Source of the DNA: Eledone cirrhosa
Lineage: Eukaryota
DNA length: 64,000 nucleotides
Direction: 5' to 3'
Assembly: GCA_964016885.1 (NCBI GenBank)
Contig: OZ024741.1
Location: forward strand, 143,840,001-143,904,000
Shown here: positions 1,058 to 51,582 of the stretch, piece by piece
Numbering within the stretch: the first letter of the stretch is position 1
Layout of the letters: each line of letters starts with the position of its first letter
Made by a program: the position numbers and the translations under genes
Notes under the pieces: generated by a model
What the model was told of the DNA's origin: nothing
The model's database searches: none
The model's input: only the letters and a program-made list of their open reading frames with translations

Positions 1058-1255
1058 CATTTATTATGGCTATTGGTGAGCTTTGTTACTCTAAAGTTTC
1101 ACCTGCGCACTTAAAGTATGACCAGTCTTGTCTGATGATCCTGTGAGTACGTAGGTGAAACTCCATGACAAAAAGGCTCGTCACTTAGCCATAATAAATG
1201 AATATTTAAACTCTATTTCGGTATTGAGTTTTCATTCTTATGTCCATCAATAATT
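1058..1255 (+). mobile_element. Fold-back hairpin + tail mini-element with hammerhead core (non-autonomous PLE-like)
   Basis: Imperfect arms ~1058-1111 and ~1146-1200; ttgt-CTGATGA-t-cctgtg-agta-cgtagg-t-GAAA...acaa at 1128-1171; tail hairpin ACTC-tat-ttcg-gta-TT-GAGT at 1210-1229. Confidence 0.65.
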
Positions 1256-1259
1256 CCTG

Positions 1260-1544
1260 TACTGTAAGGTCTTGAATAATGCCCACCCACCTTCGCTTAT
1301 TGATTTTATCCCCTCCCTCCGCTTATTAAACTTTGCTAATCTATCTCCTTCGAAATTTTATTGTGATTCGTATTGATACAGCAGTTGGAGAATCTAATAA
1401 TTTTATTTTACAAAAACATTATATATGACAAAAAAAGAACATCACCTAGAAATCCCATATTTATGAACGTTCACTATACAATTACTGATTTCCCAAGCTC
1501 CAGCCATTATTGCCAAACCTCCTATTATTAGGGACCCGAGAGTA
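1260..1544. mobile_element. Possible degenerate MITE
   Basis: Left end TACTGTAAGGTCTTGAATAAT matches the reverse complement of the right end, TACTCTCGGGTCCCTAATAAT, at 15/21; non-coding. Confidence 0.4.
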
Positions 1545-4457
1545 CCACCAAACTCTCTTCCTCTCTATGTCTATCACACAAAACTCTCTTTTAATCCCCC
1601 CTCTATCTACTACCACCAAACTCTCCCTTCTCTATATCTACCACGACACCGCCTCTCTTATCTCACTCTCTATATCTAAAACCAATACAATCTCCCCTCT
1701 CTATAAATATCTACACTTATCTCTCCCAATCCCTCTCTCTATATATCAATCACTCCTAAGCTCTCTCTATATATATATCTACTACACAGCACTCTCCCAA
1801 TCTACAACCACCAAATTCTCCCCCTCTCTATATCTAACCTACAACACACTCTCCCAATCTCTCTCTCTCTCTTTATATCAATCATCCCCAAACTCTCCCC
1901 CTCGCCACCTCTACCACATGGCACTCTCTCATTATCCCCCCTCATTCTATCCATCACCAGCAAACCCTCACCCCCTCTATACCCAATATACACCACTCTA
2001 TCATAATATTCCTCTGTTTATCAATCACCACCACAAACAGCTGCCCTCTATGTCTTTTACGATACTGTCTCTCCCAATACCCCTCTCTATATTTAACAAT
2101 ATTTATCTCCCCCCTCCCCCGATTATATCTACAAGCATTGAAATCTACCCCTCTCTATATCTACTACACGACATTCCTTCCCAATCCCCCCTCTCTATAT
2201 GAATTATCACCAAACTATACCTCTCTCTATATCTGCCATAACACCTCTCTCTCTCTCATTCCTTCTCATTCTATCCATCACTACCAAACTCTCCCCCTCT
2301 CTATATCTATCAATACCTATCTCTAACAATCCTCTCACTCTATTCATTATCGCCAAACTCTCCCCTTCTCTACATCAACCATACAACACTCTCTCCCAGT
2401 CCCCCTCTATATATCAATTAACACCAAACTATCCCCCTCTCTATATCTACTATATGTGCTGGCTCTCGAGCCACTACTGAGGAAGCTGGAGCTGTTGCAG
2501 GGCATCCCCTTGGAACCGGGATTGCGGAAAGCGGTGTCGGCCTACGCCGATGACGTGACAGTAATGGTGTCGTGCGCCTCGGAAATCGGGCAGATCGGCA
2601 CCTTACTGGAGGAATATGAAAGGTTCACAGGAGCCAAGCTGAACCGGGACAAGTCCGTCGGTTTGCAACTCGGGACGTGGAGGGGCAAAACGATGCCCTC
2701 CGACGGCATCGTCAGACGCTGGACGGAGGGACCGGTGAAGCTGCTCGGGGTCTGGTTCGGACCCGACCTCCAGGTGGAGAAAAACTGGGACGAGGTAACG
2801 GGCAAGGTGTTTGCACTCGCCCAGAAGTGGGCCGAGTGCAAACTATCCCTGAAAGGTCGAGCGGAGGTGGCGAACGCTTATATAGCGTCCGTCATCTACT
2901 ACCGTTTGACCGTCGTGCCTTGCCCAGAGAAAACACTCGCCAAAATGGAGCGCGCGCTCTTCCGATTTCTTTGGAAGAAGCGGGCTCCTTTGGTGAGAAG
3001 ATCCATCTGCTGTCAACACCCTTTGAACGGAGGGCTGGGGATGCCGTGGCTGACGATGCGTAGACACGCATTAAGGCTACGGCACCTCCAGGTATTCCTC
3101 ACCGGTCAGCCGGTGTGGGCCCTGTTTGTGAGGCGAGCCTTTCCGAGACTCGTCTCACTCACCGAGCTGCAATCCTGGGTCAAGCAAAGACCAAGAAAAG
3201 TGGGCGACTGGCACATTGAATGTGCCCAGGCGCTCACGGCCCTCTGACAAGCGGATCCGGCAATCAGGGGAGACTCAACCTCAACATTCTATAGAGGGTT
3301 GGTGCGCAGTAAGTGCGACGACGCTCTCGGAGAGGCTCTGGGCATGGAGGAAGACGAGCTGGCTAGTCTGTTCGGTAGGACGTTTGGCCCGGGACCGATG
3401 GACAACTTCCAAAAGTCCCTGGCTTGGCAATGTTACCGAGGAGCTCTACCCGTTCGGGACAAGCTCTACAGACACGGGCGCCCGGGTAGGGACCCCTCGA
3501 AGAAGATCTGTCCAAGATGCGTGCGTGACGAGGAAACCGTCGCACATGCATTCGTACACTGCCCGGGCGTTGCTGACCTGTGGGGCTATGTAGAACGACT
3601 ACTGTCGCGGGTGGGACCAATCTGGTTGACCACCGAGAACATTGTCACAATCAAACCGCCTCCCCCTTTCAAAAACGAAGGAGAGGCGCTTTTCCTCTGT
3701 GTAATAGCCATGGCGAAAGAAGTTGTATGGTGGACAAGGTTGAAAGGGCTGAGGTCAGACACCTTTCTCTCCGGCCAACAACTGGTCTTTTTTTTCAAGT
3801 ACCACTTTAGAAGAAGGATCAGAATGGAGAGAGAGGTGCTCTACCCCAGCAAGTTTTATGAAAGATGGGTGAAAGTAGCGAGAATGGCCCGAGTGAATGG
3901 GCCTTCTCTCTATATCAGCCTGTAGGTGAGAGAGGAGAAGAATGAGAGAGGAAGGAAGCACCCGCTCTTTGTGCTCCTGAAGAGGAGGGTTGCACATTTT
4001 TTCGGGGGTGTGTGCGACCCATGTCAACGCCCCTCCCTATTGAGGACATCGATTGTTAAATTTAATTTGTTATATGTTTTTTACACGTCTGTTTAAATGT
4101 ATGTAAACTCCCCCCTTTGTATTTGTCCCAATCTTTGATGCCCTGGTGGCAAATAAATATAAATATATATCTACTACACGACACTCTCTTATTCTTCCCC
4201 TCCTTATATCTACAACAACCAACTCTCCCCCTCACTATATCTAATATACAACACTCTCTCTATATATCAACCATACAAAACACTCTGAATCCCCTTCTCT
4301 ATATACATTGCCAACAAACACTACTCCTATCTATATCTACCGTTCAACACGCTCTTTCAATGCCCCTCTCTATATCAATTACCACTATACTCTCCCTCTC
4401 TATATATCTACTACTCGGTACTCTTTTCCAATTCCCCTCTCTATATCAATTAACACT
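1545..4457. repeat. Degenerate C/T-rich minisatellite (about 35/70 bp units, core CCCCCTCTCTATATC), interrupted by a Tx1 copy at 2453-4165
   Basis: Repeated aaactctccccctctctatatcta and ctctcccaatccccctctctatatatca units at 1545-2452 and 4166-4457; a related fragment lies at ~51860-51975. Confidence 0.75.
2453..4165 (+). mobile_element. Tx1-like (L1 clade) LINE, 5'-truncated copy
   Basis: Near-identical to 8429-10143; RT YADD in ORF 2456..3247, stop at 3245-3247, C-terminal CPRC..H...HC finger; 11-bp TSD TATATCTACTA at 2442-2452 and 4166-4176. Confidence 0.93.
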
Positions 4458-4517
4458 TGATATAAACGTGATTTACTTTGCTCCGGATTTTTACGGATTG
4501 TTGTAAAAAAAATAACT

Positions 4518-50473: not shown

Positions 50474-50826
50474 AAGTTATTCCGGGTTGAATCGGAGGTA
50501 ACCACAGTAAGTAATGTACTCAATATATAGCATAGTATAAAAGTTTTAATATAGAAGAGCTTCTACAGGAATAGAACTGTTTCATTCGTGAGAAATCATC
50601 AGGGAGCTGGCTATCCAAGTAAGTAGTGGTATTTATATCTTTTCTTTTCTGGTTTTAGGAGAGGGTGGGGATAGGTCATTAGTTGAAGGATTTAATCCCC
50701 ACCCTCTCCTACCACCAGAAAAGAAAAGATATAAATACCACTACTTACTTGGATAGCCAGCTCCCTGATGATTTCTCACAAATGAAACAGTTCTAATCCT
50801 ATAGAAGCTCTTCTATATTAAAACTT
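50474..50826 (-). mobile_element. Palindromic hammerhead mini-element, copy 2
   Basis: Reverse complement of 11723-12071 with the same loop and ends; HHRs at 50558-50608 (-) and 50759-50809 (+). Confidence 0.88.
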
Positions 50827-50840
50827 ATATATATATATAT

Positions 50841-51056
50841 ATATTTATTAAAATAACAGATTAAAGTTTAAGCAAAGAATCGCTGCTTTCACTCTTAACG
50901 GAAGATCCCGTTAAGGGTGAAAGCAGTGATTCTTTGCTTAAACTTTAATCTGTTATTTTAATAAATATTTGCTCTACGGTTCTTATATATTTGATATATA
51001 TTTATCCTTATCGAGCCCTCTTTGGATTTTAGTCATCAAATTTATTATTATTACTA
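50841..51056 (+). mobile_element. Fold-back form of the 49788-50117 family
   Basis: 61-bp arms 50841-50901 and 50908-50968; tail GCTC-ta...ta-TC-GAGC at 50971-51016. Confidence 0.8.
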
Positions 51057-51080
51057 TATATATATATATATATATATATA

Positions 51081-51582
51081 GAATTAGTAAATTTGTATTC
51101 CAATGTTACTAAGTAGTCGCATTGGATGGAGTCAACCAACGTCGGAGATTGCTCAACGTATAATAAAGTGTGTTTTAAAATCCGGAGAAAATATGGAGAA
51201 GAAGTTTATGAAACGGAAATGCGGGTATAAAAAATTTATTAGGTAACAATTGTTTCTATAGTGTATGGGTTGCCTATACCTCGCTATTTGAATAATATAA
51301 AAATATTATCATAAACCGAAGGTACACTGTAAGAAAACACACCATGTCTTCAGACCTTTGTAGTGGAATGATATGAAAATATTTTATACATATAAAATAT
51401 TTTCATATCATTCCACTACAAAGGTCTGAAGACATGGTGTGTTTTCTTACAGTGTACCTTCGGTTTATGATAATATTTTTATATTATTCAAATAGCGAGG
51501 TATAGGTAATCCATACACTATAGAAACAATTGTTACCTAATAAATTCTTTATACCCGCATTTCCGTTTCATAAACTTCTTCT
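51081..51582 (-). mobile_element. Near-perfect 192-bp-arm palindrome with hammerheads on both strands, plus tail
   Basis: Arms 51197-51388 and 51391-51582 with 3 mismatches; tail 51081-51196. Confidence 0.88.
51422..51538 (+). ncRNA. Type I hammerhead with extended ~90-nt stem II (mirror at 51241-51357, minus strand)
   Basis: aggt-CTGAAGA-c-atggtgtg...tacactat-a-GAAA-caattg-TT-acct. Confidence 0.8.

Follow-up and report, generated by a model that had tools for sequence, protein, structure and literature searches.

The integration of Penelope-like elements (PLEs), the pairing of an inverted repeat with a one-sided tail, and the mobilisation of animal retrozymes are open problems, and only one PLE has been reconstituted in vitro. 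The accessible text on a PLE of the Poseidon clade reports that reverse transcription starts at two internal sites bounding the tail, and that the protein, predicted to be a dimer, cleaves both strands of an AT-rich target and takes uncleaved RNA as its template (PMC11167929). The one-sided tail was already known (PMC8557442, in the parts accessible), and retrozymes have been linked to PLEs in the accessible parts of two further papers (PMC7229834; 10.64898/2026.07.22.740005). Here we analyse 64,000 nt of Eledone cirrhosa (assembly GCA_964016885.1, contig OZ024741.1, positions 143,840,001 to 143,904,000; hereafter the window), which contain a coding PLE and a set of mini-elements whose ends are marked by one short bulged hairpin. 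An earlier reading of the same letters (the original prediction) had proposed this hairpin as a shared cis signal. We find that one element unit usually bears two such hairpins, one after the ribozyme and one before the open reading frame (ORF).

The genome measures 3.0 Gb and is rich in (TA)n. The coding PLE of the window belongs to a young family, with at least 86 scored copies at 89-97% identity, the window's own aside; other copies hold open frames of 808-809 amino acids with a reverse transcriptase (RT) core of RDDG, and the C-terminal region of the coding frames aligns to P0001-P0003. Pfam returned no hit for the Hydra ORF pieces of the window at E 0.1, so domains are named from motifs. 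The frame of locus L018 has the CxCX5C linker (CNCPVKNKC at 667), and a single CxxC (767) and a single CxH (795) that flank conserved E and N, with no internal CCHH; residues C676, C679, E682, N696, C705 and H707 are invariant. DKT is found in three of four long frames and NKT in that of L018, and RW is followed by I and not K here, the relatives having RWK or RWR. A hammerhead in the pseudo-long terminal repeat (pLTR) and insertion into (TA)n are both present. As far as sequence can tell, linker, CxxC/CxH, hammerhead and (TA)n flanks are the marks that the accessible text of Craig et al. 2021 (PMC8557442) gives for the Hydra clade of C-terminal endonuclease-positive (EN+) PLEs, with which the family shares protein motifs, hammerhead, (TA)n target, partial tandems and an inverted 5'-truncated copy with the tail at one end only. 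In a quick tree, built without the published Hydra proteins, the 10 rows from this genome form one subclade nested among 36 Hydra-type relatives and distant from the control element, which is a PLE of a different clade (Table 1).

The hairpin has the consensus R-CUC-Y[variable stem-loop]R-UH-GAG-Y, usually with ACU next (in DNA RCTCY-[stem-loop]-R-TH-GAGY), and measures ~20 nt. All 12 instances listed in the original prediction were recovered where it had placed them. Matches to RCTC-stem-T[ACT]-GAGY number 12, 8 and 6 in the window for upper stems of at least 2, 3 and 4 bp, against 4.2, 1.7 and 0.75 when the sequence is locally dinucleotide-shuffled (20 shuffles). A further, independent 600 kb of the same genome, drawn at fixed places on five contigs (L031-L090), holds 89, 62 and 40 matches against 27.9, 10.6 and 4.3 in shuffled sequence. 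With a stem of at least 4 bp the two-base bulge is TT in 25 cases, TC in 10 and TA in 5 (40 of 50), the remaining 13 dinucleotides giving 10 in total; replacing the trimer by others with two G/C gives a mean of 7.7 and a maximum of 22 matches (600 kb, 4-bp stem). The matches in sample and window sort into 17 multi-copy and 38 single-copy groups, and families that end just 5' of the hairpin are distinct from chance groups without such ends. Two extra window matches, 58851 (-) and 10209 (-), have no element context and are probably due to chance.

The order within a unit is hammerhead, hairpin 1, tail, hairpin 2 and the ATG of the next tandem unit's ORF; hairpin 2 sits 57-170 nt beyond hairpin 1 and just 5' of the ORF start, mostly 15-42 nt from the first ATG. 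Most insertions into (TA)n terminate 2-7 nt 5' of one of the two hairpins, at a short UA matching the target; the end at hairpin 1 is called site A and that at hairpin 2 site B. Since ends lie just 5' of both hairpins, what is known as the PLE 'tail' is the stretch that separates one copy of the signal from the other. The parents of the elements at 10913, 50971 and 51188 show the order hammerhead, hairpin 1, tail, hairpin 2, ATG, and so does the unit at 47878, whose listed hairpin is the second-position one and not the one after the hammerhead; the parent of 41467 has the same two-hairpin order, with an outer mismatch. The original prediction missed both this second hairpin at the tail end and the conservation across phyla described below.

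The coding family permits a count of ends at loci chosen by protein. In 30 such loci the pLTR copies, direct or inverted, end at most 10 nt 5' of the hairpin (A) or at +83 (B). ORF-linked 3' ends comprise 15 at A, 10 at B and 1 other (n = 26), so that direct copies, too, can stop ahead of the hairpin, while inverted copies comprise 3 at A, 8 at B (tail-bearing) and 1 at a locus edge (n = 12). Four tandem copies pass site B and show the second motif 6 nt further on, followed by the ORF start. In one family, all 25 of 25 copies run beyond the hammerhead cleavage site.

An inverted arm accompanies nine of the 12 window instances. BLAST places the arm end at -2 to -7 in eight; for the ninth (50536) BLAST over-extends into TA repeats and the end was read by eye at -4. 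The claim that arms stop 2-8 nt before the hairpin thus holds for these nine, at 2-7 nt; no inverted arm was found within 4.5 kb upstream of 16085, 10913 or 47878, and the counting of the coding copy at 14-16 kb as arm-bearing was not confirmed. In the 600-kb sample an upstream arm ends within 60 nt of 40 of the 89 matches, and 34 of these 40 end at -16 to +1. The two sites are coupled: among 77 inverted pairs from 18 families (bait loci excluded) 75 are A+B, 2 are B+B and none is A+A. This count drops FAM6, one of 19 families, whose query contained a microsatellite with thousands of repeat matches (1866 false A+A, 3 A+B). At coding loci picked by protein, inverted pairs are A+B in 8 of 9. Separately, the pair 49091 (-)/49546 (+) looks like A+A or lacks a tail; other members of its family do have the hairpin.

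Public reads were aligned to one tandem junction (L009, hairpin 1 at 381 and hairpin 2 at 471). The main loose ends into (TA)n, among the best-supported ends displayed, fall at 381 and 464-466, and read depth drops ~200-fold past hairpin 2; the reads are restriction-site-associated DNA sequencing (RAD-seq), possibly from a relative species, and their depth is biased because of restriction sites. One copy in a C3 sample block (near 32213, - strand) carries a further short copy of the motif within its tail, 46 nt beyond hairpin 1.

To ask how widely the signal is conserved, a Hydra-protein profile was used to fetch 90 loci from metagenome and bin contigs, representing 71 families at <80% DNA identity. 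These foreign loci are presumably animal host DNA; eleven bacterial bins of a GTDB-based collection (L230-L240) contain Hydra PLE contigs, most likely as animal host contamination, and in IMG/VR no relatives were found. Where a hammerhead core follows the ORF with enough flank, the hairpin lies 44-74 nt 3' of the hammerhead in 28 of 41 loci, compared to 1 of 41 on the reverse strand, 0.19 in shuffles and 5 of 603 ORF windows. Several of the other 13 loci enter TA repeats 42-59 nt past the core, as site A predicts, and two have near-matches. The 150 nt upstream of the ORF start could be inspected in 36 loci: 30 contain one hairpin or more and 23 contain two, with none on the reverse strand. Where 5' and 3' pLTRs could be compared away from a contig end, 8 of 11 ends lie at -12 to 0 from a hairpin. 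TA stands at -6/-5 in 46% of 74 foreign hairpins, against mostly 5-18% at more distant positions.

The foreign set also bears on pairing. With only CTC and T.GAG required by the search, pair 5 is Watson-Crick in 56 of 62 hairpins (C-G 38, U-A 18; permuted 32.2), pair 7 in 28 of 37 (permuted 9.7) and pair 6 in 34 of 57; in a 42-row alignment of selected short instances, none of 500 shuffles reaches the covariation score. Pairs of the upper stem covary, in line with the original prediction. The covarying outer pair of that prediction stands in part: it covaries in this genome (with the outer letters left free, AT 25, GC 8, AC 1, GT 0 and 19 other combinations), but two families have a fixed mismatch and foreign hairpins are nearly all G-C (54 of 62). 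ACT directly follows the motif in 54 of the 62. A covariance model built from 42 short foreign hairpins ranks 21457, 12001, 50963 and 47870 top in the window, with 41442, 50512 and 1202 among weaker matches; the model, weak at such length, missed the long-stem and coding-family instances. Rfam models gave no match on the hairpins of the window or of 8 loci; the window scan otherwise returned microsatellite microRNA noise and one weak HH9 hammerhead match at 41684.

No such hairpin was found beside the hammerhead in any of seven C-terminal loci of the control-clade PLE; one of them has an unrelated Hydra remnant 728 nt on. Covariation, enrichment over shuffled sequence and non-random arm ends were all found, and the idea of a shared cis signal is supported, in that the hairpin covaries, is tied to insertion ends and is specific to one PLE clade (Hydra). 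Two control-clade families (~50-55% protein identity) share ~26 nt, ATGACCCTCCC-x-AAGTATAACAATAT, right before the proximal end (27801-27830 (-) and sample copies). A tail of 45-55 nt lies beyond. The shared sequence is possibly that clade's own end signal, placed 5' and not 3' of the end.

The 12 window instances represent ten families, one coding and nine mini. Six mini families (10913, 12009/50536, 21465, 41467, 50971 and 51188) link to Hydra ORFs of their own, ~32-50% identical to the window's coding family, and are truncated copies of these coding Hydra families. Links required sequence continuity or a tandem junction, links by proximity alone being rejected. The link of 21465 is the weakest, coming from a 100-nt match of 78-84% and three or four loci with inverted ORF pieces; this family is the commonest in the sample, and its longer copies hold a U3-A8 variant hammerhead (by eye) and Hydra ORF pieces (32-48%). 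For 41467 a tandem junction in L248 runs into its own ORF (44%); the parent of 51188 (L263) has hairpin 2 four nt past the tail end, an ORF of 37-50% identity and a tandem period of ~3 kb; the 50971 family has a non-canonical hammerhead core, CAGAAGA. No coding parent was found for the 1210 family, whose six further copies are all short without an ORF hit, or for the 48895 family among three extra copies examined.

The ninth mini family differs. Its 592-nt period, found at C4 and C2 loci, contains both hairpins, A and B ends and a U3-A8 variant hammerhead core (by eye); its longest frame is 59 codons in 466 nt, it has no Hydra protein similarity, and at least 39 other dispersed or tandem copies exist at 97-98%. 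By its organisation the unit is a non-LTR (non-long terminal repeat) retrozyme. The U3-A8 variant is described in the accessible text of PMC4209133; cores TTGATAA and TTGAGAA with a long stem II occur in the retrozyme and in the commonest Hydra family (48136-48223; L097, L107, L116), such cores being read by eye, as the scanner missed several variants. Because six families have their own Hydra ORFs, the picture of numerous small RNAs relying on a single coding family is for the most part incorrect; that small hammerhead RNAs use one PLE clade is retained for the clade and for the retrozyme, six of the nine mini-elements being truncated coding copies.

Table 1. Positions of Hydra-clade features and of the control element in the window (strand '.', none given)
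Feature	Position	Strand	Remark
Fold-back arms of short element, hammerhead core 1132 (+)	1058..1204	.	no coding parent found
Hairpin 1	1210..1229	+	arm ends ~6 nt upstream
Hairpin 1, long upper stem	10913..10981	+	family: hairpin 2 169 nt downstream, then own Hydra ORF (37.6% identity)
Inverted arms, hammerhead cores 11784 (-), 11943 (+)	11729..12005	.	truncated copy of coding Hydra family (L129, L133; 36-42%)
Hairpin 1	12009..12027	+	arm end 4 nt upstream; tail to ~12072
5'-truncated coding Hydra copy: ORF remnant, 3' untranslated region (UTR), hammerhead 15980, hairpin 1 16085-16109, tail	14101..16168	+	no inverted arm found
Short fold-back remnant, hairpin 1 at 21465-21488	21392..21540	+	arm end 5 nt upstream
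Control PLE of other clade, CX4CXXC linker, hammerhead 28053	27801..30557	-	two ends ~45-55 nt apart
Fold-back remnant, hairpin 1 41446-41467 (-), hammerhead core 41701 (+)	41375..41785	.	arm end 7 nt upstream
Coding-family tail, ~85-90 nt, starting with hairpin 1 at 42592-42616	42538..42620	-	hairpin 2 6 nt past tail end in tandem copies
Type I hammerhead, coding family	42660..42731	-	core at 42723
Predicted RT + GIY-YIG ORF, Hydra clade, 5'-truncated	43631..45136	-	full frame ~800 amino acids in other copies
Inverted arm, hammerhead at 46291	45051..46393	+	ends ~4 nt before hairpin 1 position (site A)
Truncated monomer of 592-nt non-coding tandem unit	47830..48295	+	hairpin 2 47878-47894; hammerhead ~48136-48223; ends at site A
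Hairpin 1	48895..48954	+	inverted arm 46498-46605, end 5 nt upstream; longer copies have a hammerhead
Hairpin 1, second copy of 12009 family, one substitution	50518..50536	-	hammerhead cores 50602 (-), 50765 (+)
Hairpin 1	50971..51016	+	arm end 2 nt upstream; parent: hairpin 2 89 nt downstream, own ORF (34%)
Hairpin 1, family-wide T.C outer mismatch	51151..51188	-	palindrome 51191-51588 ends 2 nt upstream

What might such a pair of signals do? We propose, with a probability of roughly 0.6, that the RT is bound by the hairpin, which sets where copying begins internally, and that two hairpins serve to prime the two ends of a (TA)n break. An RT-endonuclease would bind the hairpin on uncleaved tandem or circular sense RNA, and target-primed reverse transcription would start internally, just 5' of it. 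With a protein unit on each of two hairpins, one end of the double-strand break would be primed from A and the other from B, and the joined cDNAs would form an inverted repeat whose tail is on a single side; such a twin-start route would explain the PLE signature. Any RNA bearing the hairpins could then serve as a template in trans, and the 592-nt retrozyme appears to be a case of this. Speaking for the proposal are the enrichment and arm ends in the 600-kb sample, the presence, end positions and covariation of the hairpin in foreign loci, the loose read ends, the A+B coupling, the TA at -6/-5, the G.U bias described below, the copies that run beyond the hammerhead cleavage site and the behaviour of the Poseidon PLE.

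A number of observations weigh against this proposal. Every mechanistic step is inferred from DNA ends, and a 'B' in the A+B tally denotes an arm that passes hairpin 1 and not a base-resolved end. The single junction of the 12009 family (L133) has no recognisable hairpin 2 despite the family's sharp tail end (six of seven junctions have it), and three of the 11 foreign ends lie far from the hairpin (+32, -65, -86). As to the structure, pair 6 is often unpaired, chiefly in hairpin 2 (9 of 25 Watson-Crick); four pairs never vary in the 42-row alignment, and the three invariant lower-stem pairs are thus uninformative about pairing; and the permutation tests ignore kinship among families. The outer pair is a fixed T.C mismatch in the 51188 family and a fixed A.C mismatch in one retrozyme subfamily. 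The predicted fold is weak (z -1.65 for a 276-nt region), the minimum-energy structure fails to reproduce the exact bulged form, and folding energy favours the antisense strand in 76 of 126 cases.

The main rival holds that the motif acts in DNA: the GIY-YIG endonuclease would recognise it in cDNA or in a concatemer and cut just upstream, resolving the intermediate at A and B. The invariant CTC/GAG and following ACT are readable as sequence, the more stable antisense folds suit this reading, the Drosophila Penelope endonuclease needed the tail for recognition (cited in the accessible part of PMC11167929), and Craig et al., in the text accessible, attribute the tail to endonuclease resolution (PMC8557442). 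Covariation of the upper stem, however, needs a single strand, and the 9:1 ratio of G.U to A.C favours sense RNA as the folded strand; TA microhomology at the ends fits priming, and the tested Poseidon protein starts reverse transcription at tail ends (PMC11167929, accessible part). On balance we regard action in DNA as unlikely, if the most serious competitor.

Less probable still is that the hairpin directs RNA cutting, by a host nuclease or an element protein, a few nt upstream, and that ordinary non-LTR priming would then copy the RNA 3' ends so created. Identical genomic ends would result, and structure-guided nucleases typically act at a set, short distance from a stem. The strict A+B coupling (75 of 77) is harder to explain in this way, because a cut at A parts the two hairpins, and internal initiation has been shown for the Poseidon PLE, in the accessible part of that study (PMC11167929). 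We give little credence to self-priming on an antisense template, in which the hairpin would be a stop or boundary on that strand: self-priming has been proposed for PLE palindromes (PMC3846280, accessible part) and many of the short elements are perfect fold-backs, but a second identical hairpin at the tail end and A ends in direct copies (15 of 26) are left unexplained, and the G.U bias favours the sense strand.

AATAAA does not generally accompany the hairpin: it precedes hairpin 1 in 4 of 19 families (against 0.7) and hairpin 2 in 0 of 19. That the ends are polyadenylation sites, the hairpin serving translation or transcription and not integration, is most improbable: the modest enrichment before hairpin 1, an AATAAA 17 nt 5' of site B in the coding family and the nearness of hairpin 2 to the first ATG speak for it, but AATAAA is absent from all 19 spacers, the non-coding retrozyme retains both hairpins, and polyadenylation as cause of the ends was rejected on what follows site B (TA in 20 of 24, read-through in 4, poly(A) in 0).

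A wider reading is held tentatively and at somewhat less than even odds: the hairpin may be a portable tag for the RT of a telomerase-sister group, kept across animal phyla, with two tags loading a dimer that primes both (TA)n break ends, so that tagged RNAs, retrozymes included, get written in.

Among other features of the window, remnants from different Hydra families pile up in shared (TA)n tracts, where every new copy provides a further target (42538-51588; L102, L253, L258). Hammerhead-like cores at 11236 (-) and 13939 (+) lie in hairpin-less elements (window 11150-11300 and 13939). An Rfam scan placed pieces of tRNA-derived short interspersed nuclear elements (SINEs) at 30817 and 48315. 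The intervals 218-837, 2327-9788, 17314-20514, 25081-27825, 31497-38964, 52491-57965 and 60709-63805 contain what we take, from motifs in the ORF list, to be a mariner-like transposase remnant, L1/Tx1-like long interspersed nuclear element (LINE) copies, several RTE-like LINE copies and a Helitron-like remnant.

By eye, the exact motif is present in three of six new published Hydra consensus sequences, one of coral and two of sea cucumber: Hydra-2_Amil, Hydra-2_Ajap and Hydra-1_Ajap (twice, at the 5' start); Hydra-1_Crog has an imperfect motif, Hydra-1_Obim none by eye, and Hydra-1_Amil stops at a point from which, in the close relative L222, hairpin 1 is 4 nt away (PMC8557442, accessible material). 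Tails there are given as 30-40 bp, against ~60-170 nt here, and the accessible text of Craig et al. describes no hairpin, whereas here ends follow a duplicated structural signal. The Poseidon PLE of Anolis (PAc; Frangieh et al. 2024, PMC11167929) shares two start sites bounding the tail, an AT-rich target, an uncleaved RNA template and a predicted dimer. PAc belongs to another clade, however, and initiates internally in an AC-rich stem-loop without the RCUC/UHGAGY motif; the accessible parts of the study report no cross-family consensus, covariation or repeated signal. In its stem-loop region there seem to be two similar units with GAAAG, and ACAACA(A)C comes after each of them (PMC11167929 supplement 1). 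The 592-nt non-coding tandem hammerhead unit fits the non-LTR retrozymes of Cervera and de la Pena 2020 (PMC7229834) and Li et al. 2026 (10.64898/2026.07.22.740005). Neither paper, in its accessible parts, names a cis signal for mobilisation, 'hairpin' and 'stem-loop' occurring 0 times in the main text of PMC7229834; that most mini-elements here are truncated coding copies is anticipated in the accessible discussion of Li et al. 2026 (10.64898/2026.07.22.740005).

No description of the motif was found in the full-text literature searched or in Rfam. The elements and their tail had been described before; what appears to be new is the pair of hairpins, its conservation throughout the clade and the rule that it fixes both ends. 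A duplicated, covarying signal of ~20 nt that predicts both ends to within a few bases, across families 30-50% identical in protein, makes the questions of integration approachable by simple mutant assays and gives curators a boundary rule for Hydra elements. It is also a candidate RNA handle for an RT family sister to telomerase, with a possible use in writing tagged RNA into (TA)n sites.

In hepadnaviral epsilon, in the template-flanking elements of telomerase RNA and in the R2 3' UTR, an RNA structure by the template fixes where the RT starts. The hairpin has no sequence or Rfam similarity to any of these, and differs from them in lying 3' of the start site and in being repeated.

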